The notes under the pieces are model-generated. The model was not told the DNA's origin, did no database searches, and saw only the letters and a list, made by a program, of their open reading frames with translations. From Glycomyces tenuis DSM 44171 (GTDB taxonomy: Bacteria > Actinomycetota > Actinomycetes > Mycobacteriales > Micromonosporaceae): a DNA stretch of 64,000 bases. The DNA lies in NCBI RefSeq assembly GCF_000427885.1, contig NZ_ATYW01000001.1, forward strand, positions 147 through 64,146, read 5' to 3'. The translations under genes were made by a program, and so were the position numbers. Shown in pieces: positions 12,924 to 31,521 of the stretch. Within the stretch, counting starts at the first letter, position 1, and each line of letters starts with the position of its first letter.

Positions 12924-12935
12924 GGCACCTCCTGA

Positions 12936-15263: not shown

Positions 15264-15285
15264 CACCACTCCACCAACACCCAGC

Positions 15286-15314: not shown

Positions 15315-15621
15315 ACACTTGCCGATCCACCTCAGCTGAAGCGAGACGCCATCCGCGATCACTGCCACAACCAAGATGAAAAACAGCAGGTCAGCGGATC
15401 ATCGACGCCTCAGCTCAATTGGGATCGGTCAACCTCGGTTCGAACACCGCTCGAAACGCCTCCGGCAGAGCGGCTCGCCTACGCGATCGCCGGGCGGCGC
15501 CCCCGCGCACGCGACGGAGGCCGTGTCACCCCCGGCGAGCTGGTCGATCACTCACGGCGCCCCGCGCGGAAACGGCGGAGGCAGGGCACGAGGTTTCGTC
15601 TCGACCGCCTCGAAGGGCGCG

Positions 15622-18225
15622 TCAGCCTCGGTCGACGGTGAGCTTGTCGCCCTGGCCGGTGGCGCCGACCTTCACCGTGTCGCCGTCGATGATCTTGCCT
15701 TCCAGGAGCTCGCGCGAGAGCGGATCGCCGATCGAGGTCTGGATCAGGCGGCGCAGCGGCCTGGCCCCGTAGACCGGGTCGAAGCCGCGCTCGGCCAGCC
15801 AGGACTTCGCCGCATCGTCCACGGTGAGCTTGAGCCGCCGCGTGTCCATGCGCCGCTGGAGCTGGCGCAGCTGCACGTCCACGATCGACTTGAGGTCCTC
15901 GTGCTCCAGAGCGTGGAAGATGACGATGTCGTCGAGCCGGTTGAGGAACTCGGGCTTGAAGTGGCCCCGGATCGCGCCCAGCACCGACTCGCGCTTGGCC
16001 TCGGCCTCCAGCGTCGGGTCGGTCAGCGACTGCGAGCCGAGGTTCGAGGTCATGATCAGGATGACGTTGCGGAAGTCGACCGTGCGGCCCTGCCCGTCGG
16101 TCAGGCGCCCGTCGTCGAGGACCTGGAGCAGCGTGTCGAAGACCCGCGTGTGCGCCTTCTCGACCTCGTCGAGCAGCACCACCGAGTACGGCCTGCGCCG
16201 CACCGGCTCGGTGAGCTGGCCGCCCTCCTCGTATCCGACATAGCCGGGCGGGGCGCCGATGAGGCGCGCCACCGAGTGCTGCTCGGTGTACTCGCCCATG
16301 TCGATGCGGATCATCGCCCGGTCGTCGTCGAACATGAACTCGGCGAGGGCCTTCGCCAGCTCGGTCTTGCCGACGCCGCTGGGCCCGGCGAAGATGAACG
16401 AGCCGGTGGGCCGGTTCGGATCGGACAGGCCCGCGCGGGCGCGGCGCAGCGCGTCGGAGACGACGGTGACCGCCTCCCGCTGGCCGACGACGCGCTCGCC
16501 GAGGACGCGCTCGGCATTGAGGAGCTTGTGCGTCTCGGACTCCTGGAGGCGCCCGGCGGGGATGCCGGTCCACGACGAGACGACGTCGGCGATCTCGTCG
16601 GCGTCGATCTCCTCCTTGAGCATCGGGGCCTCGGCGACCGGCTCGTCGGTGCGCTCGAGCTCGGCCTCGGCCACCGTCAGCTGCTGTTCGAGCTCGGGGA
16701 TCTTGCCGTAGCGCAGCTGCGCGGCCTTCTCCAGGTCGTATTCGCGTTCGGCCCGCTCGGCCTGGGTGCGCAGGTCGTCGAGCTGCTCCTTGAGCTCGGA
16801 GACCTTGGAGATGCGGTCCTTCTCCGAGGCCCACTGGCGGCTCAGCGCCGCGAGGCGCTCGCGGGCGTCGGCCAGTTCGCGCTGGAGCGCCTGGAGCCGC
16901 TCGGCCGAGGCCGGGTCGTCGGTCTCGTTCTGGAGCGCGGTCTCCTCGATCTCGAGGCGGCGCACGGCCCGCTCGACCTCGTCGATCTCCTCGGGACGCG
17001 AGTCGATCTCGATGCGCAGGCGCGAGGCGGCCTCGTCGACCAGGTCGATGGCCTTGTCGGGGAGCTGGCGGTCGGTGATGTACCGGGCCGACAGCTGCGA
17101 GGCGGCCACCAGCGCGGAGTCGGTGATGCGCACGCCGTGGTGCACCTCGTAGCGCTCCTTGAGGCCGCGCAGAATGGCGACGGTGTCCTCGATGGACGGC
17201 TCGCCGACGTAGACCTGCTGGAAGCGGCGCTCCAGGGCCGCGTCCTTCTCGATGTGCTCGCGGTACTCGTTGAGCGTGGTCGCGCCGATCATGTGGAGCT
17301 CGCCGCGCGCCAGAGCGGGCTTGAGCATGTTCCCGGCGTCCATCGAGCCTTCGGACTTGCCGGCGCCGACCATGGTGTGCAGCTCGTCCATGAACGGGAT
17401 GATCTCGCCGTCGGAGGACTTGATCTCCTCCAGCACGGACTTGAACCGCTCCTCGAACTGGCCGCGGTACTGGGCGCCGGCGATCATGCTGGCGAGGTCG
17501 AGGAGGATGACGCGGCGGTCCCTCAGGGAGTCGGGGACGTCGCCCGCGACGATGCGCTGGGCGAGCCCTTCGACGATGGCGGTCTTGCCGACGCCGGGCT
17601 CGCCGATGAGGACCGGGTTGTTCTTGGTGCGGCGGGACAGGACCTGGATGACGCGGCGGATCTCGGTGTCGCGGCCGATGACCGGGTCGACCTTGCCCGA
17701 GCGGGCGGTCTCGGTGAGGTCCACGCCGTACTTCTCGAGGGCCTTGTAGCCCTGCTCGGGGTCGGCGCTGGAGATCTTGCGATCACCGCCGCGCAGGGTC
17801 GGGAACGCGCTGAGCAGCTTCTTCTCGGTGGCGCCCTGCTCGGCGAGGTAGGAGCCGACCTCGCCGCCGGCCTGGACGAGCGCGGTGAGGAGGTGCTCGG
17901 TGGAGACGTACTCGTCGCCGTAGTCGGTGGCGATCTTGTCGGCGGCGTTGATGGCGCGCAGCGACTCCCGGGCCATGGAGGGCTCGGAGACGGACGGCCC
18001 CGAGGCGGAGGGCATCTCGTCGAGGCGGCGCTCGGTCTCGGCCGAGACGGCGCCGGGCGTGACGCCGACGAGCTGGAGCAGGCCCGGCGCGGTGGAGCCG
18101 TCGACGGTGATCAGCGCGTCGAGCAGGTGCCAGGGGTCGACCGCCGGGTTGCCGCCCGCGGCGGCGGTGCGGGCGGCCTGCGAGATGACTTCGCGGCTCT
18201 TGGTGGTCAAACGGTTGACGTCCAC
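15622..18225 (-). CDS. clpB: ATP-dependent chaperone ClpB
   Basis: 867 aa with Clp_N, two AAA+ modules ([17 protein letters not shown]; [19 protein letters not shown]) and a middle coiled-coil. GTG start. Confidence 0.95.
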
Positions 18226-18279
18226 GTGTCTGTCTGCCTTCCTGGGCGCGATTTCGAGCAGTCGGTGGGATGACCGGAG

Positions 18280-18298
18280 TTGAGTCTATATGACTCAA
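18280..18298. promoter_or_regulatory. HAIR element (HspR operator) upstream of clpB
   Basis: TTGAGT-ctatatg-ACTCAA matches the CTTGAGT-N7-ACTCAAG consensus, about 55 bp upstream of the clpB start. Confidence 0.7.
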
Positions 18299-18427
18299 CT
18301 TTTGTGCGGCCAGCGTCTTGCCTCAGCTCACAGGGTAAGGCCCCGGAGCCGCCGGGCCCGGGGCTTCGGCGCAGCGGCGGGGCGAGTCCCGAACGCCGCG
18401 AATGACGTTCGGACGCGGCCGGCGCGG

Positions 18428-18470
18428 AGCCGAAAAAGCCCCGGGCCCTGGGGGGCCCGGGGGCTTGAGT
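18428..18470 (-). terminator. Rho-independent terminator downstream of gene 18483..19157
   Basis: Minus-strand gcccccgggcccc-ccag-gggcccggggc followed by TTTTT. Confidence 0.5.
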
Positions 18471-18482
18471 GGGTTCGCGGTA

Positions 18483-19157
18483 CTACTTGCGAGCGCCGGT
18501 CTTGCCGAAGATGGACTTGAGCTTGGCGACGAAGCCCGGCTTCGGGGAGGGCTTCTGGGCCTCGTCCTCGACGTCGGCCTTCTCGGCGGCCGGTTCCTCG
18601 ATCTGGTCGATCTCGGGTTCCCGCTCCACCTTGGGCGCCTCGGCCTGGGCCGGGACGACCTTCTCGGGCTCGGGTTCCGGCTCCGGCTCGGCGGCCGGCT
18701 CCTCGACGGCCGCGGGCCGGTCCTCGGGCTCCAGCTCCACGGACTCGGCCACCGGCTCGGGTTCCGGCTCGGCTTCGACCACCGGCTCCGGTTCCGCAGC
18801 GGGCTCGGGTTCGGCGGCGGCCTCGGCGGCCGGGGCCTTCTCCGGCTCGGCGGCCGCTTCGGGTTCGGCCGCCTCTTCGGGTTCGGCCACTTCTTCGGGT
18901 TCGACAGTGGCGCCGTCGACGAGCAGTTCCTTCAGGTCGGCGAGCTTGATGACGGGCACGCCGGTCTCCTCGGCCTTCTTCACACGGGCCTCGGACGACT
19001 TCACCGTGTCGTCGATGAGCAAGTGCGTCACCGTCTTCGTGAACTTCGCGGCGATCGCGACATCTGCGTCGGCCGCGGCGATCTCGCGGGCCTCTTCGGC
19101 GTCCTGGCCTGTGCCCAGGACGATGATCCGGATCTTCGCTCCCGTCTTCGTCGGCAC
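18483..19157 (-). CDS. Hypothetical protein: BRCT-like N-terminal domain plus acidic Glu/Pro (EP) repeat tail
   Basis: RBS AAGGGAGG plus GTG start. AKIRIIVLGTGQDAEE...TKTVTHLLIDDTVKSSEARVKKAEETGVPVIKLADLKELL, then ..EPEEVAEPEEAAEPEAAAEPE..EPEPEPEPEK.. low-complexity region. Last gene of the flotillin supra-operon. Confidence 0.55.
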   Translation of the reverse strand: MPTKTGAKIRIIVLGTGQDAEEAREIAAADADVAIAAKFTKTVTHLLIDDTVKSSEARVKKAEETGVPVIKLADLKELLVDGATVEPEEVAEPEEAAEPEAAAEPEKAPAAEAAAEPEPAAEPEPVVEAEPEPEPVAESVELEPEDRPAAVEEPAAEPEPEPEPEKVVPAQAEAPKVEREPEIDQIEEPAAEKADVEDEAQKPSPKPGFVAKLKSIFGKTGARK

Positions 19158-19284
19158 GGGGACCTCCCTTATTCGATGGAATACGGCTACAGGGGCACAA
19201 CGGGTCTTAGTTGTCACGCTTCTTTGAGAGCGTACCGGTCGTCGACTCCGACTTCGCTGAGCGTAGACGGGAGAATCGCCGCTT

Positions 19285-22200
19285 CTACCGGGACCTTTGC
19301 TGCAATGCCGATTCGATGCCGCCGACCCGGTCGGACAGCAAGGTGATGGCCCCGACAGCCCTCGACATAGGATCGTCGTCGCCCCCGCCGAGCGTCTGCT
19401 CGCGACGGAACGCCTCCTTGACCGCCTCCCAACGGGCCCGCTGCTCCTCGGTCAAGCGGTCCCGCAGCTCCGCCAGTTTGAGCAGGTTCGCCTCGGCGCC
19501 GGAGGCCAGCGTCTGCGCCTCGCCCGCGTAGTGGTCGTCGATGAGCGCCTCGAGCTCCTCGTCGTTCATGACCGGAACCACCCGTTCGGTGAGTCGGTTC
19601 ATGTTGCGGTAGGAGCCCTGGAGCAGGAACGGCGGCTCGGTGCGGGCGGCGTCGTCCATCGCGGCGGACGCGATGTACGCGAGGTTGTTCCGCAGCACGG
19701 TCTGCTGGACGCGGACGAGTTTGCGCAGCACGGAGAGGATCTGGTCGAGCTCCCCGGCCGCGTAGGCGTGTTGCAGGGCGTCGGGCGCGGCCGTCGGGTC
19801 GTCGGACGCCAGGCGGATGAGCAGCCGGATGTCGTCCCGGTCGCGCCCGGCCAGCGGGGCGAGCACGCTGTTCGAGGTCAGCGCGTTCTCGATGTAGGAC
19901 TGGGCGAAGACCGCGTCGCGTCCGGACAGGACGTCGCCGAGGTTCCACACGTCGGCGCGGTTGGCGAGCATGTCGGGGATGCGGAACCGCTGCCCGGCCT
20001 CGGTGTACGGGTTGCCGGCCATGCAGACTGCGAAGCGCTTCCCGCGCAGGTCGTAGGTGCGGGTGCGGCCTCTCCAGACGCCCTCCATCTTGCGCTGGGC
20101 GTCGCACAGCGAGATGAACTTCTGGAGCAGCTCGGGGTTGGTGTGCTGGATGTCGTCCAGGTAGAGCAGGACGTTGTTGCCGCATTCGAGCGCGAAGTTG
20201 ATCTTCTCGACCTCTTGGCGGGCGGTCGCGTTCGGCGCGTCGGCCGGGTCGACCGAGACGGTCTCGTAGCCGAGCGCGGGCCCGTTGACCTTGACCAGGA
20301 GCATCCCGAGCCGGTCGGCGACGTACTCCATGAGCGTGGTCTTGCCGTAGCCGGGCGGGGAGATGAGCATGAGCATGCCGGACTGGTCGGTGCGGCGCGC
20401 GTCCCCGGAGCCGGCGCCGATCTGCTTGGCGAGGTTGGAGCCGATGAGCGGCAGGTAGACCTCGTCGATGAGCTGGTTGCGCACGAAGCCGGCCATGACC
20501 TTCGGCTTGAACTCCTCGACGCGCAGCTCGCGCTTGTGGGCCTCGATGATCTCGCCGCGGCGGCGCTGGTAGGCGCGGTAGCCGGGCATGGTCCGCGCCG
20601 CGAACCGGGAAGTGCGCGCGAGGAACTCGTCCAAGCGGATCCGCAGCGCGCGGTTCTCGATGCGCGGATGGACGCCGAGCAGGCCGGCGACCTCGGAGGC
20701 CAGTTCGGCGGTGACGTCGTACGAGTCGGCCTCGGCCAGGAGCGTCGCGAGCGCCTCGGGCAGGTCCGCGGCGTCGAAGCGCTCGTCCTCGGTCCTGCGC
20801 AGGAAGGCGTCGAGCCAGTTCCAGGCCAGGCCCCACTGGGAGTACAGGTCGCCGTCGAGGGCCAGCAGGTCGTCCTCGAACGCGGCCTTCGCGGCCGGGC
20901 CGATCTGCCGCTCGAACGCGGCGAGCAGCTCGCGGGCGCGCCCGGAGGCGGCGAACGCTCCGGTGGCGGCGAGCTCCTCGGCGAGGTACTCGGCGGCGAG
21001 CTCGGTCTGCGGTTCGAGTTTGAAGCTGAAGTGGAGCGACAGCCGCGAGCCGTCGAGGAACGGCCCGAGCTCGCTTTCGAGCTCGGCGACGAGCCCGGCC
21101 ATCGCGTCGGGGCGCCCGAAGGTCTCGCGGACCCGCGCCAGCGACCTGGCCTGGGCGGCGAGGCGCTCCCGGTCCTCCTTGTCGACGCCGTGGACCCAGT
21201 ACAGGCGCGCTGCGGCCCGGCACGCGGGCGTGTAGCGCAGCGTCCCGGCCGCGGCGTGCAGCCGCAGGACCTCGGCGAGGATCGCGGCGGCGTCGGCGTC
21301 GTGGACGCCCCTCTCGTAGCCCTCGTCGTAGCGTTCGGCCGCCGCCGCGGAGACGAAGCGGGGCAGGTCCTCCTCGGCGAGGAGCTTCGCGGCGCCGTGC
21401 TCGGCCAGCAGTGAGGCGGCCAGGTGCTCGGCCCGGTAGACCTCGGCGTTCTCCGAGGCCAGTGACTGGTTCCAGTACCGCTTCGTGTCGGCGAAGGCCG
21501 GGTCGTCGACGACGTGGCGGTAGTCGGTGCCGGTGAGCGAGAACGCGAGTGCCTCTCCCGACGGCACCAGTGTGAGGTCCAGCGGCTGCGTGTTGACCGG
21601 GATGCGGTGCTCGCCGAAGCGGATCGCGTCCCCGTCGTACAGGTCGAGCTGGTCCTGGAGCGCCCGGCCCGCCTCTTGGCGGGTGGCCTGGATGCGGCCC
21701 TCGATCTCCTCGGCGCGGACGGTGTCGTCGAGTTCGCGCAGTTCGGCGACGACGCGCCTCAGCCGCTCGATCATCGGGTCGGTCGCGAAGTAGGTGTTGA
21801 CCTCGTCCAGGGAGGACAGCGAGGCGCTGCGGCGGGCGACCGCTTCGAGGATGCGGTCGGCCGAGGCGGCGAGCCGCTCGGCGCGCCGGGCGGCCTCGTC
21901 GAGCAGGTTCTGCTTGCGCGAGGAGAACGCCTCGTAGACGTCGGTGCGCTTGTCGGCCAACTGGGCGAGGAAGTCGTCGAAGTCGGCGAAGCGGGTCTCG
22001 AGGTTCTCGACGGTCAGCAGCAGGCGCCCGAGCTGCTCGTCGCAGTCGGCGGGCGTGTTCGCGGCGGCGAGCGCGGCGGTGACGGCCTGTCCGAGCAGGG
22101 CGTACTCGGCGGCGAACTCGGCCCGGCCCTCGCCGACGGACAGCTCGCGGCGGCGGGCGGCGAGGGTGGCGCGGGTGCGGTTGACGGCGGCCAGGACCTC

Positions 22201-24225
22201 CGAGACGCGCCCGAGGATGGCGGTGCGGACGGTCGCGTCGCCGATCTCCAGAGTGGAGACGACCTCGGTGAGGGTCTCCAGGCCGTGCTGGCGGGCGTCG
22301 AGGTCCTCGACCAGCGGGGCGGACCCGGCGACGGTCTCGATGCGTTCGGCCTTGTGCTCGAGCTCGCCGATCTCGGCGAAGTAGGGCGCGAAGGCGTCCT
22401 CGCGTTCGAGGAAGGCGACGGCCCGCCTGCCGGTGCCGTCGAGGCATTCGCCCAGCTCGGCCTCCATGCCGTCGATGCGCTCGGTGTCGACGTAGCGGAG
22501 GTCGCGGAGGGTGACCAGGTGGCCTTGGGCGCCGCGCAGTTCGGTGAGCAGCCCGACCCACTGCTCGGCGGACTTCGGGGCCTCGCCGCGGGCGCGGCGC
22601 AGGAGCTTCAGCGTGTCGGTCTCGGCCTGCGCCAGGGCCTTGCCGGCCTCGGCGGTCAGCTCGGCGACGGTGGCGTACTCGTCGAGGACGGCCTCGGCGG
22701 TGTCGCGGACGCTGCGCAGCGTCTCGTCGAGCGCGAACAGGCCCTCGTCGCCGAGCCACGGGTAGTCGTCGAGGCAGCGGGTGGCGGCGGCGATGAGCGC
22801 CTCGAACACGGCCTGGCCGGGCCGCATCTCGCGGACCATGCGCGCCACCGAGAGCGCGTCGGAGACGGCGCGGACGGCCTCGGCGTTGCCGATGCGGTGG
22901 ATCGGGGTGTCGCCGCTCTCGTGGGCGGCGGCGTGGGCCTCGGAGACGAAGGGCGTCTCCCACACCTGCATGGGGTGGACGCGGGTGGCCTCGTCGCCGG
23001 TGAAGCGGAAGGCGAGCAGGGTGCCGTCGTCGAAGATCGAGTAGCCGTGGACGGTCATCGGCGCGGCGACTTCCTTGCGGATGACGTTGTACGGCAGCAG
23101 GAGCGAGCGGCCCTCGGATTCGTGGTAGAAGACGAAGAGGACGTCTTCGCCGTTGGGGGAGCGGATCACGCGCTTGAAGCGCAGGTCCGTGGTGTCGTGG
23201 TCGAAGGTCTTGAGCTTGCCCTCGTTGAGGTAGTAGCCGCCGGGGAAGATGATGCCGTGGTCTTCGGGCAGGCGGCGGCAGGCCGCGCCGACGGCGTCGG
23301 CGCGCTGGACCTCGCCGGTGCGGCGGTTGTAGATCAGGTAGCGGGTCTGCGTCTCCTTGTAGGGCAGGATCCGCAGCAGGATCAGCGGCCCGACGCGGGC
23401 GTAGGCGATCGAGGCGTCGGCCAGCGACTGGAGGGGCTCGGCGACGGGCTCGGAGAAGATGCCCTCGCCGGTCTCGGTGTTGTCCTCGACCTTGACGGTG
23501 AGCGTGCCGCCGGTGCACTCGACGAAGATCTCGTCCTCGATGGACACGTGCGGGTGGCGGCCGGTGACGTGGTCGTCCCGGCTGGTCTCGACCCACTCGA
23601 AGTCGTACGGCTCGGGCCAGACGTTGTCGGCCTCGCCGCGGGCGTCCAGGTACTCGGCGGTGCCGTCGGGGCGCAGCTGCCAGCGCAGGACGCGCTGGTC
23701 GGCGAGGTTCTCGCCGATGCGGAAGACCGCGAGCAGGCGGGTGTCGACCTGGCGCACCTGGAGCAGCTCGGTCGAGCGGTAGTACCGGTACATCTCGGTG
23801 AAGTCGGCGGTGAAGCGCGCGTCGTCGAGGACGTGCCCGGCCTGCTCGACCTCGGCGAAGGAGAACTTGCCGTCCTCGGCGGCGAACTCGTGGAGGGCGA
23901 AGACGTCGCCCACGTCGGTGTGGGACTTGAGGCCCATGTGGACGTTGTAGCCGAAGAGGAGGTGCCCGCCGACCTGCACCATGTCGCGCGGGACGCAGTT
24001 GTTGGCGGTGCGGATGCGGGTGGTGCCCGCGAGGCGCAGCTCGGTCGAGCCGAAGGCCTCGGTGCGGGCGGCGTTGAGCGTCTCGGCGCGGCCGGTCAGC
24101 TCGGTGGCGAAGTCGGCGAGGCGGGTCGACAGGACTTCATAGGTGCCGACGTCAAGGGCACTGTCGGGGGTGCTCGCTGCGCCGTCGCCGGCGGCGTCGG
24201 GTGCGGCGGTGTTCTCTTCGGCCAT
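19285..24225 (-). CDS. Giant (1646-aa) protein with a C-terminal AAA+ ATPase domain (AAA_5/dynein/MoxR-like)
   Basis: RBS GAGGGA. Long helical N-terminal region. Walker A LISPPGYGKTTLMEYV, Walker B NVLLYLDDIQHTNPELL, and an Arg-finger-like FAVCMAGNPY at about residue 1180-1300. Immediately downstream of flotillin. Confidence 0.8.
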   Translation of the reverse strand: MAEENTAAPDAAGDGAASTPDSALDVGTYEVLSTRLADFATELTGRAETLNAARTEAFGSTELRLAGTTRIRTANNCVPRDMVQVGGHLLFGYNVHMGLKSHTDVGDVFALHEFAAEDGKFSFAEVEQAGHVLDDARFTADFTEMYRYYRSTELLQVRQVDTRLLAVFRIGENLADQRVLRWQLRPDGTAEYLDARGEADNVWPEPYDFEWVETSRDDHVTGRHPHVSIEDEIFVECTGGTLTVKVEDNTETGEGIFSEPVAEPLQSLADASIAYARVGPLILLRILPYKETQTRYLIYNRRTGEVQRADAVGAACRRLPEDHGIIFPGGYYLNEGKLKTFDHDTTDLRFKRVIRSPNGEDVLFVFYHESEGRSLLLPYNVIRKEVAAPMTVHGYSIFDDGTLLAFRFTGDEATRVHPMQVWETPFVSEAHAAAHESGDTPIHRIGNAEAVRAVSDALSVARMVREMRPGQAVFEALIAAATRCLDDYPWLGDEGLFALDETLRSVRDTAEAVLDEYATVAELTAEAGKALAQAETDTLKLLRRARGEAPKSAEQWVGLLTELRGAQGHLVTLRDLRYVDTERIDGMEAELGECLDGTGRRAVAFLEREDAFAPYFAEIGELEHKAERIETVAGSAPLVEDLDARQHGLETLTEVVSTLEIGDATVRTAILGRVSEVLAAVNRTRATLAARRRELSVGEGRAEFAAEYALLGQAVTAALAAANTPADCDEQLGRLLLTVENLETRFADFDDFLAQLADKRTDVYEAFSSRKQNLLDEAARRAERLAASADRILEAVARRSASLSSLDEVNTYFATDPMIERLRRVVAELRELDDTVRAEEIEGRIQATRQEAGRALQDQLDLYDGDAIRFGEHRIPVNTQPLDLTLVPSGEALAFSLTGTDYRHVVDDPAFADTKRYWNQSLASENAEVYRAEHLAASLLAEHGAAKLLAEEDLPRFVSAAAAERYDEGYERGVHDADAAAILAEVLRLHAAAGTLRYTPACRAAARLYWVHGVDKEDRERLAAQARSLARVRETFGRPDAMAGLVAELESELGPFLDGSRLSLHFSFKLEPQTELAAEYLAEELAATGAFAASGRARELLAAFERQIGPAAKAAFEDDLLALDGDLYSQWGLAWNWLDAFLRRTEDERFDAADLPEALATLLAEADSYDVTAELASEVAGLLGVHPRIENRALRIRLDEFLARTSRFAARTMPGYRAYQRRRGEIIEAHKRELRVEEFKPKVMAGFVRNQLIDEVYLPLIGSNLAKQIGAGSGDARRTDQSGMLMLISPPGYGKTTLMEYVADRLGMLLVKVNGPALGYETVSVDPADAPNATARQEVEKINFALECGNNVLLYLDDIQHTNPELLQKFISLCDAQRKMEGVWRGRTRTYDLRGKRFAVCMAGNPYTEAGQRFRIPDMLANRADVWNLGDVLSGRDAVFAQSYIENALTSNSVLAPLAGRDRDDIRLLIRLASDDPTAAPDALQHAYAAGELDQILSVLRKLVRVQQTVLRNNLAYIASAAMDDAARTEPPFLLQGSYRNMNRLTERVVPVMNDEELEALIDDHYAGEAQTLASGAEANLLKLAELRDRLTEEQRARWEAVKEAFRREQTLGGGDDDPMSRAVGAITLLSDRVGGIESALQQRSR

Positions 24226-24323
24226 GGTCGTCCCTCTACGGTTCTGCGGTAACCACGAGTCTCGTCTCGGAAGGCGCGGGGCCGCCGCACGGGATCGGCG
24301 ATCCCGTGCGGCGGCCCGGGGGC

Positions 24324-26393
24324 CTATCGTGCGGTCATCTCGACGGCCGGGCGCTCGGCGACGCCGAGCTCCTTGGCCTTGACGAGCAGGCCGTCCAGCA
24401 TGTCGCGGTCACCGCCGCCGCCCTGGATGAGCTTGAGCAGCGCGGCCGAGACGGTCAGGTTCTTGATGTCCTCGGTGCCGACGGCGGACAGGACGCTCTT
24501 GAGGTCCTCGGAGAACGAGGTGCTCCCGTTCGCCCAGGTGGCGGCGATCGAGGAGGCCACGTCGGAGTGCTCGACGAAGCCGTCGACGGCCTTGCCGTAG
24601 CCGATCGCGCCGACCACCCGGTCGAAGAACTGGGTGTCGCCGCCGACCAGCGAGATGTCGGCCTTCGAGAGCCCGGCGGCGATGATGGAGGCCTGCTGCT
24701 CGGCGATGGCGCGCCGCGCCTCGATCTCGGCGCCGCGCAGCTCCTTCTCCATCTCGAGCCGCAGGCGGTACTCCTCGTGCGCCTGGGAGGCGGTGGAGAG
24801 GGCGTCCATCGCGGCGGCCTTCTCGGTCAGGCCCGCCGACTCGGCGACGAGCTTCTCGCGCAGGGCGTCGGCCTCGGCCGTGCCCTTCGCGGCGGTCGCG
24901 TCGGCCTCGGCCTTGCCGATCGCGGAGTAGGCCTCGGCCTCGGCCCTGCCCTTCGCCTCGGCGGCCTTGGCCTCGGCCAGCCCGCCCTTCTCGATCGCGT
25001 CGGCCTCGGCCTCGCGGACCTGCACCTCGGCCAGGCCGGGCGCGGCGGCCAGGGCCTTGTCGCCCTCGGCCTGGCGGATCTTGGCGGCGGCCTCCATCTC
25101 GGCGGCCTGCTGGGCGGCCTCGGCCTCGGTCAGGCGCTGGCGCGCGAGGTGCTTGGACGCGGCCTCGGCGGCCTCGGCGGCCTTGATGTCCTTGACCAGG
25201 TTCTCCTGGGCCTCGGCCTCGGCGAGGATGATGACCTTCTGGCGCTCGCGCTCGGCCTCTTCGGTGGCCCTCAGGCGCTTGATGCCCTCTTCCTGCTCGG
25301 CGACGGTCTTCTCGACGGCGATGCGCTCGCGGATGACGTCGGCGATGTCGCGCTTCTGGGCCTCGAGCTCCTTGTTCGCGGCGATGCGGGCCAGTTCCTC
25401 TTCGCGCTCGCGGGCGACGACCTCGAGGATGCGGTCCTTCTCGATCCGCTCGGACTCGACGGCGATGACGCGCTCGCGGTTCTTCTCGGCGACGGCGATC
25501 TCGCGCAGGCGGTTCTCGTGCTGGATCCCGGTGGCCTCTTCGGTCTTGATGCGCGCGGTCTCGGACTTGAGGCGCTCCTCGGACTGGACCTTCTGGATCT
25601 CGGCGCTCTCGCGGGCCCGGAGGGTCTCGATCTCGCGCTGCTGGCGGATCTCGGCCTCCTCTTGGCGGCGCTCGAGCTCGAGCACGGCCTCGCGGGCCTC
25701 GACGTCCTGGCGCTTGATCTCCTTCTCCTCGTGGCGCCGGTACTCGTTGGTGGTGACCGCCTCTTTGGCGGTCAGCTCGGTGATCTTGCGGATGCCCTGC
25801 GCGTCGAGGATGTTCTGCGGGTCGAGCACCGTCATCGGCGTCTGCTCGAGGTAGTCGATGGCGGCGTCCTCGAGCGAGTAGCCGTTGAGGTCGGTGCCGA
25901 TGACGTGGATGATGCGGTCGCGGAACTCGTCGCGGTTGGTGTAGAGGTCGGTGAAGTCGAGCTGCTTGCCGACGGTCTTGAGCGCCTCGGAGAACTTGGC
26001 GTTGAACAGCTCCTGAAGCGTCTCCTGGTCGGAGGCGCGCTTGGTGCCGATCGAGTTGGCGACGTTGCGGACGTCGTCGGCGGTGGCGTTGACGCGCACG
26101 AAGAACGTGATCGAGATGTCGGCGCGGATGTTGTCCTGGCAGATCAGGCCGTCTTTGCCGTTCCGGTTGATCTCGATGGTCTTGACCGAGATGTCCATGT
26201 ACTCGGCCTTGTGGATGATCGGCAGGACCAGCGCCGAGGTGAAGGACACCTTGCGGGTGCGCAGCTTGGTGACGACCAGGGCTTGACCGGGGGCCACCTT
26301 CCGGTAGAGCCGGACGATCATGAGCAGCAGGCCCACGAAGATGACCGCGGCCACTACGAGCGTGACCAGTGTCGCCGAGTTGGCAGTGTCCAT
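24324..26393 (-). CDS. Flotillin-family (SPFH/band-7) protein
   Basis: N-terminal TM segment, SPFH domain (ALVLPIIHKAEYMDISVKTIEINR...), then a very long Glu/Ala-rich coiled-coil (EA repeats) and a flotillin C-terminus. RBS AAGGAA. TAG stop. Confidence 0.9.
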   Translation of the reverse strand: MDTANSATLVTLVVAAVIFVGLLLMIVRLYRKVAPGQALVVTKLRTRKVSFTSALVLPIIHKAEYMDISVKTIEINRNGKDGLICQDNIRADISITFFVRVNATADDVRNVANSIGTKRASDQETLQELFNAKFSEALKTVGKQLDFTDLYTNRDEFRDRIIHVIGTDLNGYSLEDAAIDYLEQTPMTVLDPQNILDAQGIRKITELTAKEAVTTNEYRRHEEKEIKRQDVEAREAVLELERRQEEAEIRQQREIETLRARESAEIQKVQSEERLKSETARIKTEEATGIQHENRLREIAVAEKNRERVIAVESERIEKDRILEVVAREREEELARIAANKELEAQKRDIADVIRERIAVEKTVAEQEEGIKRLRATEEAERERQKVIILAEAEAQENLVKDIKAAEAAEAASKHLARQRLTEAEAAQQAAEMEAAAKIRQAEGDKALAAAPGLAEVQVREAEADAIEKGGLAEAKAAEAKGRAEAEAYSAIGKAEADATAAKGTAEADALREKLVAESAGLTEKAAAMDALSTASQAHEEYRLRLEMEKELRGAEIEARRAIAEQQASIIAAGLSKADISLVGGDTQFFDRVVGAIGYGKAVDGFVEHSDVASSIAATWANGSTSFSEDLKSVLSAVGTEDIKNLTVSAALLKLIQGGGGDRDMLDGLLVKAKELGVAERPAVEMTAR

Positions 26394-26540
26394 GGTGGTT
26401 CCTTATTGAGACTTCGGGGGGGACGGGATTTCAGGGGCTTGGGTTCGGGCGTCTTCACACATTACTGAGCGTTGTCAACTCACGGGGTACGGGCGCTCGC
26501 CGGATCCCGCCTTTCGGTACTCCGGCCGTGCGAGCGGGCG

Positions 26541-27095
26541 TCAGAGCGTGCGGCGCCGCGAAGCGGCACGCCGGATGCCCTCGAGCCGGGACCGAGCGTC
26601 GCGGCGCCGCCTGTTCCGACGGCGTTCGACCTCCAAGTCCCTTTTCCACTGCGGCCACCGCTCCCAGTTGCGGCGGCGCTCGGCCATGCCGATGAGCGCG
26701 GTCAGCAGCGCCGGGATCCAGGGAAGCCACAGCGGGCGCAGCAGCAGCGAGGCCGAGACGGGTCCGCCACCGGCCTCGGCGTGGTCGGCCACCGCCGACC
26801 ACGCCCCGATCAGCATGAACACGGCGAACACGATCACGAACGCCGGGAAGGTGGCGGAGGACCACACCACCGTCTCGCGGCCGCGCCGTTCCAGACGCCG
26901 CTCGACCGCGGCCTCGTGCTCCTCGACGTCGCGCTGGAATCGCTCGGCGCGCTCGACCTCGGCGTGGGCGGGCAGCTCGGGGCCGGGGTCGATCTTGGCC
27001 CAGACGAGCACCGCGAGGAGCAGCGCGGCGGCGAGGATGAGCGCGCACCCGCCGAGGAGGGCCAGCGCCGCCAGCAGCGCGATTCCCGCCGACAT
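26541..27095 (-). CDS. Hypothetical membrane protein (2-3 TM), flotillin-operon member
   Basis: MSAGIALLAALALLGGCALILAAALLLAVLVWAKI..., central TM FPAFVIVFAVFMLIGAW, Arg-rich C-terminus. ATG overlaps the stop of the upstream small ORF (TGATG). Confidence 0.55.
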   Translation of the reverse strand: MSAGIALLAALALLGGCALILAAALLLAVLVWAKIDPGPELPAHAEVERAERFQRDVEEHEAAVERRLERRGRETVVWSSATFPAFVIVFAVFMLIGAWSAVADHAEAGGGPVSASLLLRPLWLPWIPALLTALIGMAERRRNWERWPQWKRDLEVERRRNRRRRDARSRLEGIRRAASRRRTL

Positions 27096-27244
27096 CAGTC
27101 GCGGTCCCGGTCAGCCGACCGCCTCGACCTGCCGCGCCAGCCCAGCAGCACCGCGACCGCGACGATGAGCACCCCGACCGCGCCGGTCAGCGCCCACGCC
27201 GCGAACACGAGCCCCCAGCCCGGGATTTCAAACCACTCGCCCAC
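27095..27244 (-). CDS. Small (49-aa) single-TM protein, not in the ORF track
   Basis: RBS GGAGGG plus GTG: VGEWFEIPGWGLVFAAWALTGAVGVLIVAVAVLLGWRGRSRRSADRDRD. Stop/start coupled (TGATG) to the next gene. Confidence 0.35.
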   Translation of the reverse strand: MGEWFEIPGWGLVFAAWALTGAVGVLIVAVAVLLGWRGRSRRSADRDRD

Positions 27245-27548
27245 GCTGCCCTCCGCGCGACCGCGCTGTTCTTCCGGCTCGGTCGAGCCGTCCGACTCCT
27301 TGACGCCCGACGCGGCGCGCCTCGGGCCCGAACTCGGTGCCGGTGAGCGCGCCGCCGACGCTCACGGTGACGGCGACCTCGCCCTCCTCGGACTCGACGC
27401 GGACGCTGACCTCCGCGATCTTCTCCTGCATGTCGTCCGCTCGGCTTCGCATGGTGGCCATGCGCTGCTCGAAATCGCGCATGCGGCCTTCGTGATCCGC
27501 CAAGATCGAGGGTCTCCCGGCGCTCTGACGCTGTTCTTCACGGACCAT
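27228..27548 (-). CDS. Hypothetical protein with weak YbaB/EbfC-like core
   Basis: ...DMQEKIAEVSVRVESEEGEVAVTVSVGGALTGTEFGPEA... matches the YbaB pattern Q-x-K-(I/M)...EV.G.S.GG.V.V.V.G. The C-terminal 25 aa are Arg/Gly-rich and overlap the small TM ORF, so a frameshift is possible. Confidence 0.4.
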   Translation of the reverse strand: MVREEQRQSAGRPSILADHEGRMRDFEQRMATMRSRADDMQEKIAEVSVRVESEEGEVAVTVSVGGALTGTEFGPEARRVGRQGVGRLDRAGRTARSRGGQRGRVV

Positions 27549-27624
27549 TTGCGCTTCTTGTGAGGGAGTGGGATGGTTGGGCCGAGCCAGTGCATCGACG
27601 AGACGCCAAGACGCCTGGGGCCGT

Positions 27625-28290
27625 TCACGGCACGTCGAGACTGACCTCGGGCGGCATCGCGACCGGCACGACGAGGAAGACCTTGGCGCTCTCGTCGTAG
27701 TCGAAGATCACGAGCTTCGAGTGACGCGAGAACAGCTCGTCGTCGATGCCGTCGGGTTCGTGGACGGAGCGCCGCACGTTGATGAGGTGGATCGTGCCGT
27801 CCTCTTCGGCCAGTTCGGCCTGGCCGGTGTCGGTGGTGACGGTGCCGGTCCTGACGACGCAGACCTTGCCGATCAGGTCGCGGTGGGCCGTGGCGGGCGC
27901 ATCGGCGAAGATCTTGGACAGCGGCCCGGACAGCAGCTTCGCGCCCAGCATGCCGACCCCGATCCCGGCCACGAGCATGGCGACGCCGGAGACCGCCGCG
28001 GGGACGACCATGTCGGCGCTGCGCACCCACGTGGTGCCGAGCACGGTCACTATCCAGCCCAATGTGATCCACAGCGAGAGCACCACTGTGAACGGCACTT
28101 CGCCGAACCCGAACGCCGACCAGAAGGAGCCGCCCGTCTCCACTTCGGCGTCGACGTCGGCCCCGAAGGGGACGACGTCGACGTCCAATGCGCCCAGGAT
28201 GACGACGATCCAGTACAGGAAGACCGCGATGAGACCGAAGGAGAACACGATCGCAGGAAACGACAGGGCTACTTCCAGGAACTCGGTCAT
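27625..28290 (-). CDS. NfeD/YqiJ-like membrane protein with C-terminal OB-fold
   Basis: MTEFLEVALSFPAIVFSFGLIAVFLYWIVVILGAL (TMs) ... GKVCVVRTGTVTTDTGQAELAEEDGTIHLINVR (NfeD-type OB-fold). First gene of the flotillin supra-operon. Confidence 0.6.
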   Translation of the reverse strand: MTEFLEVALSFPAIVFSFGLIAVFLYWIVVILGALDVDVVPFGADVDAEVETGGSFWSAFGFGEVPFTVVLSLWITLGWIVTVLGTTWVRSADMVVPAAVSGVAMLVAGIGVGMLGAKLLSGPLSKIFADAPATAHRDLIGKVCVVRTGTVTTDTGQAELAEEDGTIHLINVRRSVHEPDGIDDELFSRHSKLVIFDYDESAKVFLVVPVAMPPEVSLDVP

Positions 28291-28495
28291 GGGTCTTCGG
28301 GTCCTTGTCTTCCGCTCGCGTGGGCGCTTGTGCGAACGGCGTACGGCGGGCGGGCGGCACAGTCCGGTCAACAAGATTCGGGTCTGCATTCAGATTAATG
28401 CACGCGGGCACTCGGCGGTAGGTTGCTCCGAGCCGACTATCCTGTGACCGGTCGAACAGCCCTCGCAGGCCGGGGGCGACCCGAGAGGAGGTCCG

Positions 28496-30898
28496 GTGCC
28501 CGGTTTCCGCTCCACACTGGCGAATGCGGCCGCGGGCTGCGACATCGCCGCGGCCCGGCTCGCCTCGGCCCGTCAGTGGCTCGGCGAGGCCGCCTTCAGG
28601 ACGCCGGTGGACCCGGCGCTCTTGGACGCCGAACGTCAGATATCCGACGCGGCCGCCGCCTCCGCCGCGCATCTGCGCGAAGACCCCGAGCTCCTGGCCG
28701 CCGGGCAGGTGCTCCTCCACGAAGGACGACGCTTCCCGCTCCTGGTGCCGTTCGGCGCGAGGGGCCACCTGGCGACGAGCGTCGACGCCCGCGTCGACGG
28801 CGTCGCCGCGCTGGTCAGGGCCGCGATCCTGCACACGCTGGCCCACCACGAGCCGGGGAAGGTGCGCGTGGCGGGCATCGACACCGCCACGCTCGGGGCG
28901 ACGTTCGCGCCGCTGCGGCCGCTCGCGGACGCGGGCGTCATCGAGGCCGTCGCCACCGACGCGCGCTCGGCGGCCGACGTCGTCGCGGCGGCCGAGACCC
29001 AGGTGTCCGAGAGCATCGCGGGGCGCCGCACCGACCGGCTGCTGCTGGCGATCGCCTCCCTCGGGGAGGCGCCGAGGACGCTCGTCGAACGCGTCCACGC
29101 GCTGGCGCGCTCGGGGCTCGCGCACGGCGTCACCGTCCTCGGCTGCGGGCTCCCCGAGCTGCCGCAGGCGACGGTGATGCACCAGGCGGGCGAGCGCGTC
29201 GAAGTGTCCAACCCGCCCGCGGCGCCGATCTCGCGCGGCGAGCGGCTGGCCGCGCCGGTCGCCTGGCCCGAGGGCGCCGCCCCCTCCTATCTGGCCGGCG
29301 AGGCCGCGCGCCTGGCCGAGCGCGCCAGGGCCGCGGCGACGCTCACCTTCGACGACCTCATCCCCGACGTCCCGCTCGGCGAGGACCCGTCGAGCGGTCT
29401 GGAGGTCCTGATCGGGCGCGACGCGGCCGGGGAGGTGCGGATGCGCTTCGACGACGCCACGCCGCACTGGCTCGTCGGCGGGCGCACCGGCGGCGGCAAG
29501 ACGGTGTTCCTGCTCGACGTGCTCTACGGGCTGGCCTCGCGCTACTCCCCCTCCGACCTGGCGCTGTTCCTGCTCGACTTCAAGGAGGGCGTCTCGTTCA
29601 CCGAGTTCATCCCCACCGAGCGGGACGACACCTACATCCCGCACGCCCGCGCCGTCGGCGTCGAGTCCGACCGGGAGTACGGGCTGGCGGTGCTGCGGGC
29701 GCTGAACGAGGAGATGACGACCCGGTCGACGGTGATGAAGCGCTACGGCGTGGCCGGTTTCGCGGGGCTGCGGCGCCACGAGTCGTATCCGAGGATCGTG
29801 TGCGTCGCCGACGAGTTCCAGGTGCTGCTGGCCGGGAACGACAAGGTCGCCTCCGAGGCCGTCGCGCTGCTGGAGAACCTCGCCCGCAAGGGCCGCTCGT
29901 ACGGCGTGCACCTGGTGCTGGCCTCGCAGACGATCTCGGGGATCGAGGCGCTGTGGTCGAAGAAGGACTCGATCTTCGGGCAGTTCCCGATGCGCGTGGC
30001 GCTGCCGGGGGCGCGGACGATCCTGGAGCCGAACAACGACGCGGCGACGCGGATCTCGCTGGGGCAGGTGGTGGTCAACACCGAGGGCGGCACCGCCGGG
30101 GCCGACCGGGTGGCGCGCTTCCCCGACACCGACGCCGAGGTGATGCTGCGGCTGCGCGAGCAGCTGCGGGCCGCGCACTCGGACTTCGGGGCGCCGCGCG
30201 TGTTCTACGGCTACCGTCCCGTGCACTTCGCCGAGACGCTGCCAGGCGAGCGCCGGCCCGGCCGGGTGCTGCTCGGCCGCGAGGTGTCGCTGCGGCTCGA
30301 GGCCGCGGGCGTCGACCTCGACGCGCGGCCCGGCCGCCACCTGGCGATCCTCGGCTCCGACCCGGCCGGCGGCGAGGCGCTGGAGGCCGCGGCGCAGAGC
30401 CTGGCGTACCACGCCCCGCCCGAGCGGGAGGTGTGGGCGGTGGACTTCACCGAGGGCTACAACCTGCCGAACATCGGCTACAACCTTCCCCCTGGGGACT
30501 TCGCGAGCAAACTTCCCGAAGTCCCCGACAACACCGTGATCCTGGCGTGGGGCCTCGAAGCGGCCTCGCTCGACGTGAAGGGGCAGCAGGCGCTTCGGGC
30601 GCTGCTGCGCACCGGCCCCGCCCGCGGCGTCCACCTGCTGGCCTGGTGGCGGATCTACCGCCGCTTCCTCGACGACATCGGCGGCACCGCCGGACGCGAG
30701 GACGTCGCCTGCACGCTCGTGCTCAACCTGCCCGGATCCGAGCTCTTCGGCCACTTCGGGCAGCAGTTCCAGCACTGGAGCCCGCGCCCGGGGCGGGCGC
30801 TCCTGATCGACCGCCACGCCGACACCGGCTCGGGCCGCCTCATCGTGCCCTTCACCCGCCCCTCGGCCGGGGCGACCACGGAAAGGGACCGCGTGTGA
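28496..30898 (+). CDS. FtsK/SpoIIIE-family ATPase, cytoplasmic, three P-loop-like domains with only the central one canonical
   Basis: Central domain WLVGGRTGGGKTVFLLDVLYGL (Walker A)...IVCVADEFQVLLAG (Walker B)...LVLASQTISGI. Flanking domains are degenerate. No TM segment. RBS GAGGAGG plus GTG start. Confidence 0.85.
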   Translation: MPGFRSTLANAAAGCDIAAARLASARQWLGEAAFRTPVDPALLDAERQISDAAAASAAHLREDPELLAAGQVLLHEGRRFPLLVPFGARGHLATSVDARVDGVAALVRAAILHTLAHHEPGKVRVAGIDTATLGATFAPLRPLADAGVIEAVATDARSAADVVAAAETQVSESIAGRRTDRLLLAIASLGEAPRTLVERVHALARSGLAHGVTVLGCGLPELPQATVMHQAGERVEVSNPPAAPISRGERLAAPVAWPEGAAPSYLAGEAARLAERARAAATLTFDDLIPDVPLGEDPSSGLEVLIGRDAAGEVRMRFDDATPHWLVGGRTGGGKTVFLLDVLYGLASRYSPSDLALFLLDFKEGVSFTEFIPTERDDTYIPHARAVGVESDREYGLAVLRALNEEMTTRSTVMKRYGVAGFAGLRRHESYPRIVCVADEFQVLLAGNDKVASEAVALLENLARKGRSYGVHLVLASQTISGIEALWSKKDSIFGQFPMRVALPGARTILEPNNDAATRISLGQVVVNTEGGTAGADRVARFPDTDAEVMLRLREQLRAAHSDFGAPRVFYGYRPVHFAETLPGERRPGRVLLGREVSLRLEAAGVDLDARPGRHLAILGSDPAGGEALEAAAQSLAYHAPPEREVWAVDFTEGYNLPNIGYNLPPGDFASKLPEVPDNTVILAWGLEAASLDVKGQQALRALLRTGPARGVHLLAWWRIYRRFLDDIGGTAGREDVACTLVLNLPGSELFGHFGQQFQHWSPRPGRALLIDRHADTGSGRLIVPFTRPSAGATTERDRV

Positions 30899-31521
30899 GC
30901 GCCTTCGACGACTACCTCGCCCAGCTGAGGCGCCTCGACGAGGCGCGGCGCGGCGCCGACGAGGCCGCCGCGCGCTCCGCCTCGGTGACCGAGTCGCTGG
31001 GGCAGCGGACCGAGCGGCTCGCCGAACAGGCCGCCTCGCAGCGCGCCGCCGTCGACGAACTCGCCCGCGCCGCCCGCACCGAGCCGCCCCCGCGCGTCGC
31101 CGGGGCGCCGCTCGGCGGCGACCCGGCCGTCGAGATCGACGCCGCCGAGGCCGACCTGCAAACGGCCGCGACCGAACTCGAAGACGCCCGCTTCCTGGCG
31201 CACCGGCCGCCGTGGCTGCCGCGCTGGCGCACCGACGAGCGCAACGGCCTCGTCTACGGCCTGTTCGCGCTCGCCTCGCTGCTGGTGCAACTGCTGGTGC
31301 TGCGGCTGGTGAAGGCCGACGACCTGATGGGGGCGATCGTGCTCGCCGCGGTCGTCGTCGCCTGCCCGCTGCTGGCGTTCGCCTTGGCCTGGTTGACCAT
31401 CGGGGTGACCTCGCGCCCGCGCATCACCGACGAGGAGAAGAAGCTCGAACGCAACTTCCGCCTCGGCCTGGTGCTGTGCGGCTCCACGCTGATCGTCTCC
31501 TGCTTCGGCTTCTTCAGCTGA
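30895..31521 (+). CDS. Membrane protein translationally coupled to the FtsK-like ATPase (GTGA overlap)
   Basis: VSAFDDYLAQLRRLDEARRG... coiled-coil N-terminus, then three TM segments (LVYGLFALASLLVQLLVLRLV; AIVLAAVVVACPLLAFALAWLTIGV; LGLVLCGSTLIVSCFGFFS). Confidence 0.6.
   Translation: MSAFDDYLAQLRRLDEARRGADEAAARSASVTESLGQRTERLAEQAASQRAAVDELARAARTEPPPRVAGAPLGGDPAVEIDAAEADLQTAATELEDARFLAHRPPWLPRWRTDERNGLVYGLFALASLLVQLLVLRLVKADDLMGAIVLAAVVVACPLLAFALAWLTIGVTSRPRITDEEKKLERNFRLGLVLCGSTLIVSCFGFFS

Follow-up and report, generated by a model that had tools for sequence, protein, structure and literature searches.

Synteny and domain architecture of a YqiJ-like protein, flotillin and giant ATPase gene triad in Glycomyces tenuis DSM 44171

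The window, that is the whole stretch of DNA analysed here, comprises 64,000 nucleotides (nt) of Glycomyces tenuis DSM 44171 (NZ_ATYW01000001.1) and has a G+C content of about 70%. It includes seven co-oriented genes on the minus strand, which in the order of reading encode a YqiJ-like membrane protein, three short products, a flotillin, an ATPase of 1646 amino acids (aa) and a BRCT-like protein with an acidic linker. Only three of the seven, the genes for the YqiJ-like protein, the flotillin and the ATPase, form a conserved unit, below called the triad. Real genes were told apart from shadow open reading frames (ORFs) by third-position G+C (GC3), and all minus-strand genes of the locus are supported in this way. 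The coordinates proposed for them in the initial annotation, including the ATG of the YqiJ-like gene at 28290, proved to be correct.

The gene order was compared in 80 loci encoding the ATPase, one genome per species, from Actinomycetota, Myxococcota and a Clostridia metagenome-assembled genome (MAG). Three of these loci end at contig edges with no upstream sequence, and 77 are therefore informative. In every one of the 77, the gene immediately upstream of the ATPase, with the same orientation, encodes a flotillin homologue (46-87% identity), and a YqiJ-like homologue is found upstream of the flotillin in at least 65. The tie between the ATPase and flotillin/NfeD that had been drawn from the window alone is thereby kept throughout the sample; loss of synteny in related genomes, named at the time as the check on it, was not seen in any informative locus. 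The median distance from the flotillin stop codon to a conserved motif about 25 codons inside the ATPase is 101 nt. The gap between the two genes is therefore at most a few tens of nt in most loci, and the flotillin and ATPase genes are tightly coupled. Clustering of the ORFs across the loci recovered the triad as the only conserved element, the other clusters being antisense shadow ORFs. The identities of ATPase and flotillin to the window proteins co-vary between loci (r = 0.87), partly as a result of shared phylogeny.

The same triad order was found in the fetched loci of Flammeovirga, a Vibrio sp. and a Pirellulaceae MAG. With Bacteroidota, Planctomycetota and Vibrio included, the adjacency of the ATPase to two membrane proteins extends over at least five phyla, and the triad occurs as a unit amid otherwise unrelated neighbourhoods. 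The identity of the ATPase to the window protein is 78-91% within Glycomyces, 55-63% in other Actinomycetota and 47-50% in Myxococcota. This rough decrease with taxonomic distance suggests the mostly vertical descent of a module of the housekeeping type. The features of the locus are collected in Table 1.

Table 1. Position of the genes, predicted protein regions and non-coding features of the G. tenuis locus in the window
Feature	Position	Strand	Remarks
YqiJ-like gene	27625-28290	-	221 aa, ATG at 28290; orthologues also begin MTEFL/MSEFL
Truncated YbaB/EbfC-like ORF	27228-27548	-	106 aa
Small single-transmembrane protein	27095-27244	-	49 aa, GTG start
Three-transmembrane protein	26541-27095	-	184 aa
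Conserved region of about 110 nt 5' of flotillin start	26394-26505	-	Alignment of four Glycomyces loci
YqiK/FloT-type flotillin	24324-26393	-	689 aa
Giant ATPase	19285-24225	-	1646 aa
Predicted ATPase beta-propeller, residues ~60-425	22951-24048	-	AlphaFold2, Foldseek
Predicted ATPase helical region, residues ~430-1270, includes DUF7902	20416-22938	-	AlphaFold2
ATPase AAA+ module, residues ~1275-1646	19288-20403	-	Pfam AAA_5, motifs, Foldseek
BRCT-like acidic-linker protein	18483-19157	-	224 aa from probable GTG start at 19157; ORF to 19217 = 244 aa
Terminator-like hairpin	18439-18462	-	Directly 3' of the BRCT-like stop codon
HAIR-like palindrome GTTGAGTCATATAGACTCAAC	18279-18299		~55 nt upstream of clpB
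clpB	15622-18225	-	Passes TIGR03346

The ATPase of the window is 100% identical to a G. tenuis protein named 'DNA repair ATPase' by the Prokaryotic Genome Annotation Pipeline (PGAP) and belongs to a family with more than 5900 homologues. In Pfam, DUF3686 covers residues 42-488 (E 2e-201) and DUF7902 residues 610-694, and a weak AAA_5/AAA similarity is found at residues 1280-1412 (AAA_5 24.5 bits, cut-off 22). A single-sequence search of the PDB gave marginal P-loop matches only. No transmembrane segment was found in the ATPase by the transmembrane scan, and the protein is predicted to be soluble. When the propeller domain described below was searched against 1.84 billion cluster representatives (50% identity), 737 representatives matched. 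Among the 150 representatives listed, the full-length members were mostly about 1600-1900 aa long, with identities down to 31%; the named examples belong to Vibrio, Flammeovirga and a gammaproteobacterial MAG. In Myxococcota, Planctomycetota and the Clostridia MAG the ATPase reaches 1780-2126 aa and has a C-terminal extension of about 130-480 aa with no actinobacterial counterpart (loci L054, L058, L063, L066, L067, L073, L078 and L079).

The AlphaFold2 model of residues 1-520, with a predicted local distance difference test (pLDDT) score of 83 and a predicted TM-score (pTM) of 0.83, consists of a long helix, 27 strands at residues 64-423 and a final group of helices. The top matches of the propeller model in the PDB, obtained with Foldseek, were mostly beta-propellers, namely Elp1, Ski8, the paraoxonase PON1, prolyl oligopeptidase and the N-terminal domain of clathrin. 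Since propellers dominate these matches, the core of DUF3686 is predicted to be a beta-propeller, probably with seven blades. The model of residues 450-1646 (pLDDT 80, pTM 0.40), in which the domain orientations are unreliable, contains bundles of long helices at residues 450-860, a small beta unit and a helical domain at residues 931-1163. These are followed by an AAA+ alpha/beta core at about residues 1295-1449, a helical lid and a C-terminal domain. The helical region as a whole, about 800 aa of helix bundles or coiled coil from residue ~430 to ~1270, is interrupted by two small beta inserts. The helical N-terminal scaffold of about 1200 aa described in the initial annotation has to be divided in consequence of the AlphaFold2 and Foldseek results, into a predicted beta-propeller at residues ~60-425 and a following part of about 800 aa that is mostly helical.

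Dynein heavy chains ranked first when the model of residues 450-1646 was compared with Foldseek, with low TM-scores. The best compact matches were CbbQ (5c3c) and NorQ (9qh4), both with a Foldseek probability of 1.0, a weak E value of about 0.02 and a TM-score of about 0.4. The earlier assignment to the dynein/MoxR type of AAA+ proteins is consistent with these two matches, with Pfam AAA_5 and with the pattern of motifs. PGYGKTT, AGNPYTE-like and PDMLANRAD motifs are present in all 80 homologues. The pattern of the Walker B motif (residues 1353-1360 of the window protein, positions 20158-20181) was detected in 65 of the 80, and all 65 are of the LYLDDIQH type. Both the Walker A motif GYGKTT and the Walker B motif LLYLDDIQ had been read correctly from the window ATPase.

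The flotillin matches Pfam Band_7 with 34.2 bits (cut-off 23.6). It is 29% identical to E. coli YqiK over 479 aa (BLASTP, E 7e-40) and 45% identical to the Flammeovirga orthologue over the full length; a single-sequence search of the PDB gave no match for it. The protein begins with a hydrophobic anchor (transmembrane segment at residues 1-35), followed by the SPFH domain, a Glu/Ala-rich coiled coil and a C-terminal domain. The coiled coil had been noted before and is confirmed by the amino acid composition. The length had been called unusual, and here the larger sample gives another picture, as 689 aa is normal for a subfamily with a median of 698 aa (77 loci). Between Actinomycetota and either Myxococcota or the Clostridia MAG the SPFH domain is 64-75% identical, which is unusually conserved; the corresponding values are 45-60% for the coiled coil and 15-38% for the C-terminal region. 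Since no other region of the protein is so poorly conserved, the C-terminal domain was rejected as a candidate for a conserved docking site.

The sequence immediately 5' of the flotillin start can be aligned between four Glycomyces loci, whether they carry the cassette of small genes described below or not. Its conserved elements can be written as GTTGAC..CTCAGTAAGGTGTG..ACGCCCG..GAAGTCTCAATAAGGAACC. A consensus promoter scan of the region found nothing. From its conservation the region may be a flotillin-specific promoter, an operator or a leader/5' untranslated region.

The first gene of the triad encodes a protein with three N-terminal transmembrane helices, according to the transmembrane scan, and a C-terminal beta-rich domain. 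No direct match was found for this protein in Pfam or the PDB, the actinobacterial family also has no usable Pfam match, and a PDB search with the family profile gave only chance matches to membrane proteins. Pfam YqiJ_OB reached at best E 0.15, in one of 19 family members. Aligned with hhalign, the family profile matches the Flammeovirga orthologue with a probability of 98.5% (E 3e-15), and this orthologue passes Pfam YqiJ_N with 26.9 bits (cut-off 23). The hhalign probability for E. coli YqiJ is 63%. Both of these matches run through the C-terminal beta-rich region. Because of the link to the Flammeovirga protein that passes YqiJ_N, the protein is accepted as a YqiJ/YuaF-type, short NfeD-like protein with a putative OB fold, and the same link upholds the NfeD/YqiJ-like identity that had been proposed for it.

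Three short ORFs are inserted between the YqiJ-like gene and the flotillin. All three had been described as small membrane proteins, and two of them are. The 49-aa ORF has one transmembrane segment and the 184-aa ORF has three; the orthologues of these are genes of 51 aa and 186 aa, respectively, in G. tarimensis (L082). The 184-aa ORF, which gave no significant Pfam match, is coupled to the preceding ORF by TGATG, and the stop/start overlap reported at 27095 is thus present in the sequence. A second TGATG, reported at 27244, does not exist; there is a GTG start at this position and an overlap of 17 nt with the preceding ORF. The 106-aa ORF has no transmembrane segment in the scan, and its match to Pfam YbaB_DNA_bd covers only profile positions 3-53 of 91. 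A comparison with G. tarimensis by blastn showed that about 1.6 kb has been deleted from the cassette, with the junction between window positions 27314 and 27239. This ORF is the N-terminal half of a YbaB/EbfC-like gene that was cut by the deletion.

The G. tarimensis cassette (L082 5174-7755) is found in the same position and contains genes for a YbaB-like protein, an EspC-like protein, a WXG100-domain protein (371 aa) and the two transmembrane proteins of 51 aa and 186 aa. No match to the 184-, 49- or 106-aa ORFs was found in any of the 80 genome loci, G. mayteni included. The closest relative examined (L083), with 91% ATPase identity, has no cassette and no called gene that matches the 49- or 184-aa ORFs. 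A gene of the FtsK/SpoIIIE type (28496-30898, plus strand, 800 aa) with EccC-like matches is divergent from the YqiJ-like gene. The gene after it encodes 208 aa and is assigned to no Pfam family, and this pair (28496-31521, plus strand) is kept in all four Glycomyces loci. Judged from these similarities, the small-protein cassette looks like a decaying substrate cassette of type VII secretion outside the flotillin system, which was inserted between the YqiJ-like gene and the flotillin in G. tenuis and later partly deleted. Together with the FtsK/SpoIIIE pair it may represent a type VII secretion cluster that is either minimal or decayed.

The last of the seven genes encodes a protein composed of a BRCT-like domain, a linker of Glu, Pro and Ala (34%, 20% and 23%) and a basic amphipathic C-terminal tail. 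Since the orthologues start at GTG 19157, the gene probably starts there. The signals for BRCT are weak and consistent. PTCB-BRCT gave E 0.09 with 13.2 bits, under the cut-off of 22; a DNA ligase A chain (9vse_A, 116 aa) gave E 0.1; the C-terminal region of PADLOC PDC-S48 gave E 9e-9; and the G. tarimensis orthologue matched BRCT with E 0.09. The protein is consequently called BRCT-like here, with BRCT membership below threshold. It had been introduced as a BRCT-like protein with EP repeats, of which the acidic Glu/Pro/Ala linker stands, the BRCT part being limited to the weak signals below the curated threshold. The acidic linker varies strongly between the Glycomyces orthologues, and the tail PKPGFVAKLKSIFGKTGARK (18483-18545) that follows it is kept. 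This tail resembles an amphipathic membrane-targeting helix, an odd pairing with a BRCT-like domain. The BRCT-like gene is present in one of the 80 genome loci (L001, Glycomyces) and also in L082 and L083, and its place in the four Glycomyces loci is always after the ATPase. On this distribution the BRCT-like gene and the cassette are passengers or lineage-specific additions and not part of the core.

The hairpin at 18462-18439 has 10 G-C pairs and a T run like an intrinsic terminator, and is the probable 3' end of the transcription unit. No other convincing terminator-like site was found inside the unit on the minus strand between 28290 and 18483. Scans of the window for Rfam families and tRNA gave no matches. 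A scan of 15000-29000 for the sigma-70 consensus found no promoter, the consensus being of little weight for an actinobacterium. The palindrome GTTGAGTCATATAGACTCAAC agrees with the consensus of the HspR operator (HAIR) except for two outer mismatches and suggests that clpB, the next gene on the strand, is under HspR control. Because of the terminator-like hairpin and the HAIR-like palindrome in between, clpB is regarded as a separate heat-shock unit. It was considered as part of the system and rejected, with this intervening sequence and with its adjacency restricted to Glycomyces among the 80 loci.

In none of the other 79 genome loci does a clpB lie close to the triad. In Flammeovirga a clpB (L084 18505-20869) is located 5.6 kb downstream of the triad on the same strand. 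The proximity in both Glycomyces and Flammeovirga is probably a coincidence, noteworthy given the chaperone-like role proposed for flotillin. Downstream of clpB in the window, two co-oriented genes (11148-13952, minus strand) encode proteins of 591 aa and 338 aa with no Pfam family, and in the same position the relative L083 has genes for proteins of 324 aa and 591 aa. A transposase gene of the DDE_5 superfamily (473-1447, minus strand) lies close to the edge of the window. The neighbours of the locus in the window are ordinary metabolic genes.

The combination of flotillin, YqiJ-like protein and ATPase has been described before. Ravi et al. 2024 (mSystems, PMC11237479), whose example organism is Dokdonia donghaensis, report CesT/Tir-PspA operons with genes for YqiJ/YuaF, a band-7 flotillin and a beta-propeller-coiled-coil-AAA+ protein. 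They also describe 'related abbreviated operons' and read band-7 and its associated domains as chaperone-like assembly factors. The view that a giant AAA+ protein of this kind falls outside the described SPFH-NfeD paradigm does not hold in the light of that paper, which reports exactly such an operon. The link to the present family is given by the locus of Pontibacter akesuensis. It encodes CesT_Tir, PspA_IM30 and PLDc_N proteins, a protein of 214 aa in the YqiJ position, one of 712 aa in the flotillin position, a DUF559 insert and a 1650-aa protein with DUF3686, DUF7902 and AAA. Since this locus carries the full PspA form together with a DUF3686 ATPase, the DUF3686 family is the ATPase of PMC11237479. 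The insert, a 127-aa DUF559 protein (L087 6517-6900), is located between the flotillin and the ATPase.

PspA_IM30 and CesT_Tir were not found among the genes of the G. tenuis locus and about 20 other window proteins, and no PLD gene was found among those tested. PspA and CesT were also not found beside the myxobacterial, Clostridia MAG, Vibrio and Flammeovirga triads, only in Pontibacter. Dokdonia is absent from the best 120 matches to the Flammeovirga ATPase. Seen against the operons reported in PMC11237479, the G. tenuis locus is very probably their abbreviated form, lacking PspA.

The most likely among the functions proposed for the triad is an ATP-driven remodelling of the flotillin scaffold or of its clients. 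The flotillin, with its N-terminal helix as anchor, would form, by oligomerisation with the YqiJ-like partner and its three transmembrane helices, an SPFH scaffold or cage at the cytoplasmic side of the membrane. A beta-propeller is typically a platform for the binding of peptides or proteins, and the soluble ATPase could dock onto the scaffold by means of this domain. The helical arm of about 800 aa would then span the assembly, and the MoxR-like AAA+ module, presumably a hexamer, would spend ATP to open, turn over or disassemble the scaffold. As an alternative output, the module could act on client membrane proteins retained in the scaffold, which it would release or extract. Envelope stress is a likely setting, in which a cooperation with PspA encoded elsewhere would be possible. 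In S. aureus, FloA-NfeD is described as an ATP-independent holdase for unfolded proteins (PMC11222466). The proposal fits with this holdase role, with the link to PspA in Bacteroidota and with the pairing of HflK/C and FtsH. Drawn as it is from gene context and domain architecture, remodelling of the scaffold or its clients is put forward tentatively, as a function that is quite possible and still short of probable. The explanation as a whole, meaning the identity of the triad together with a mechanism, is the best one available and stands slightly on the probable side. A narrower statement, in which ATP-driven remodelling of flotillin assemblies, by assembly, disassembly or client release, is the dedicated task of the DUF3686 ATPase, is rather doubtful.

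Several results weigh against the remodelling proposal. The contact of the ATPase with the flotillin and the YqiJ-like protein is suggested by gene context and domain architecture only. Many YqiJ-flotillin pairs, for example E. coli yqiJK, occur with no ATPase. The Walker B motif has an invariant DD wherever it was detected and not the canonical DE (hhhhDE). This is unusual for AAA+ proteins and may mean slow hydrolysis or the use of another catalytic residue; the ATPase could accordingly work as a slow switch and not as a motor. The C-terminal region is the least conserved part of the flotillin, which disfavours one fixed docking site there. No VWA match was found in the genes of the locus, and no VWA family is conserved across the 80 loci. 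In G. tenuis the YqiJ-like gene and the flotillin are set apart by a cassette of 1.2 kb and the conserved upstream element, so that the three genes are not certain to be transcribed together in this genome.

Other explanations of the locus can be judged by the same data. The initial annotation took all seven co-oriented genes for one supra-operon, in which the small proteins and the BRCT-like protein would also be functional parts. This is consistent with their common strand, with the short or overlapping junctions and with the lack of a terminator-like site before the hairpin downstream of the BRCT-like gene, as well as with the constant position of that gene after the ATPase in Glycomyces. 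The comparison with related genomes makes it an improbable explanation all the same. The small proteins have no match in two of the three other Glycomyces loci, these two being G. mayteni and the closest of the relatives examined; in G. tarimensis they sit in the cassette with the YbaB, EspC-like and WXG100 domains that is internally deleted in the window. The BRCT-like domain is restricted to Glycomyces, being found in a single locus among the 80, and nothing apart from the triad is conserved around the ATPase. A defence-type system was likewise raised in the initial annotation; in anti-phage defence or abortive infection, the ATPase would sense the infection and the flotillin and YqiJ-like protein would damage or seal the membrane. 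Large fusions of NTPases and beta-propellers are common in conflict systems, such as the MoxR-vWA-beta-propeller type (PMC7159879), a match to the BRCT-like protein exists in the PADLOC candidate PDC-S48, in its C-terminal region, and the triad moves as a unit between unrelated neighbourhoods. PADLOC-DB 2.0 on the other hand has no match to the flotillin or the YqiJ-like protein, and for the ATPase it gave only a P-loop similarity below threshold (IetA, E 0.007), so that none of the three core proteins has a significant match. The identities roughly follow taxonomy, as in mostly vertical descent, the window neighbours are ordinary metabolic genes, and in Bacteroidota the triad is joined to the PspA envelope-stress module. 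A defence system is accordingly given little credence.

The database names would make the ATPase a DNA-repair enzyme, to which the adjacency of a flotillin has no meaning. The argument for it consists of these names ('DNA repair ATPase' in PGAP, 'ATPase involved in DNA repair' in Pfam), a weak P-loop similarity to RuvB and the BRCT-like protein downstream in Glycomyces. The match to RuvB is confined to the Walker A region (E ~0.04), however, and the profile and PDB searches gave no domain of a nuclease or helicase and none that binds DNA. Two membrane-protein neighbours are kept across at least five phyla. The literature search found no mention of DUF3686/PF12458 and none that pairs 'DNA repair ATPase' with flotillin. 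This explanation is highly improbable, and the name, which has no traceable experimental basis, is likely to mislead automated analyses. More can be said for the ATPase as a MoxR-like maturation chaperone for another membrane complex, which the flotillin merely concentrates. The best compact structural matches, CbbQ and NorQ, are maturation factors of the MoxR family, and the reading of band-7 and its partners as chaperone-like assembly factors by Ravi et al. (PMC11237479) points in the same direction. Neither a client gene nor a VWA adaptor is conserved beside the triad, though, and the flotillin and the YqiJ-like protein are the only invariant partners of the ATPase. A client-directed role of this kind is a reasonable alternative, if an unlikely one.

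The roles of bacterial flotillins, and the formation and turnover of their assemblies, are still debated. An AAA+ ATPase of 1600-1900 aa is now seen as an almost obligate neighbour of one flotillin subfamily, and the family of this ATPase has thousands of members in at least five phyla. If ATP-driven remodelling is the true function, flotillin scaffolds would be actively regulated machines, in parallel with FtsH-HflK/C and Vps4-ESCRT-III, and the missing energy-dependent step would be added to the ATP-independent holdase activity of FloA-NfeD. The propeller and the long helical arm would then constitute a bacterial adaptor to membrane scaffolds with a built-in motor. In tractable hosts, among them Streptomyces and Myxococcus, the triad gives concrete and testable access to the dynamics of flotillin. 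The additional genes of the G. tenuis locus are not to be taken for components of the system.

Among the known systems, Vps4-ESCRT-III and the AAA+ proteins associated with PspA are analogous only, in that an AAA+ protein remodels a membrane-bound polymer. The Bacteroidota triad is found beside PspA, a member of the ESCRT-III superfamily, whereas PspA is absent from the G. tenuis locus; the AAA+ module is also not of the Vps4 or classical type and has no MIT domain. The MoxR family (CbbQ, NorQ, RavA) is closer in sequence and predicted structure, with AAA_5 just over the cut-off, the AGNPYTE...PDMLANRAD pattern and the Foldseek matches to CbbQ and NorQ. MoxR-type ATPases are normally paired with a VWA partner. 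The ATPase of the triad differs from them by its DD Walker B motif, by about 1270 additional N-terminal residues and by the lack of a VWA partner gene.

HflK/C-FtsH shares with the triad the combination of an SPFH scaffold and an AAA+ machine at the cytoplasmic membrane, a resemblance in the possible mode of action and not a family membership. Oligomers of SPFH proteins assemble as cages, and FtsH is enclosed in a cage of this kind. Structures are reportedly available both of HflK/C with FtsH and of the SPFH-NfeD pair QmcA-YbbJ. FtsH is a membrane-anchored AAA+ protease of the classical clade, whereas the ATPase described here is predicted to be soluble, has no protease domain and is MoxR/dynein-like, with a propeller and a helical arm. 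With the two-gene operons yqiJK of E. coli and yuaF-floT of B. subtilis the triad shares a flotillin, here a homologue of YqiK, and a partner with three transmembrane segments, here related to YqiJ, with the partner gene placed first. The two-gene operons have no ATPase gene, and E. coli yqiK is followed by sibD/ibsD. The flotillin of the triad is about 140-180 aa longer than those of the two-gene operons, and its C-terminal part of about 220 aa is not aligned to YqiK.

Experimental work on this ATPase was not found in the literature, where its linkage to flotillin is mentioned only briefly, in the paper on PspA. The locus thus belongs to an operon type that is known and computationally described, and experimentally untouched. 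Compared with the operons of Ravi et al., G. tenuis has in addition a decayed cassette similar to type VII secretion and a BRCT-like gene, neither of which belongs to the operons as described in that paper. The three gene families, their order and the architecture of the ATPase are the same in both.

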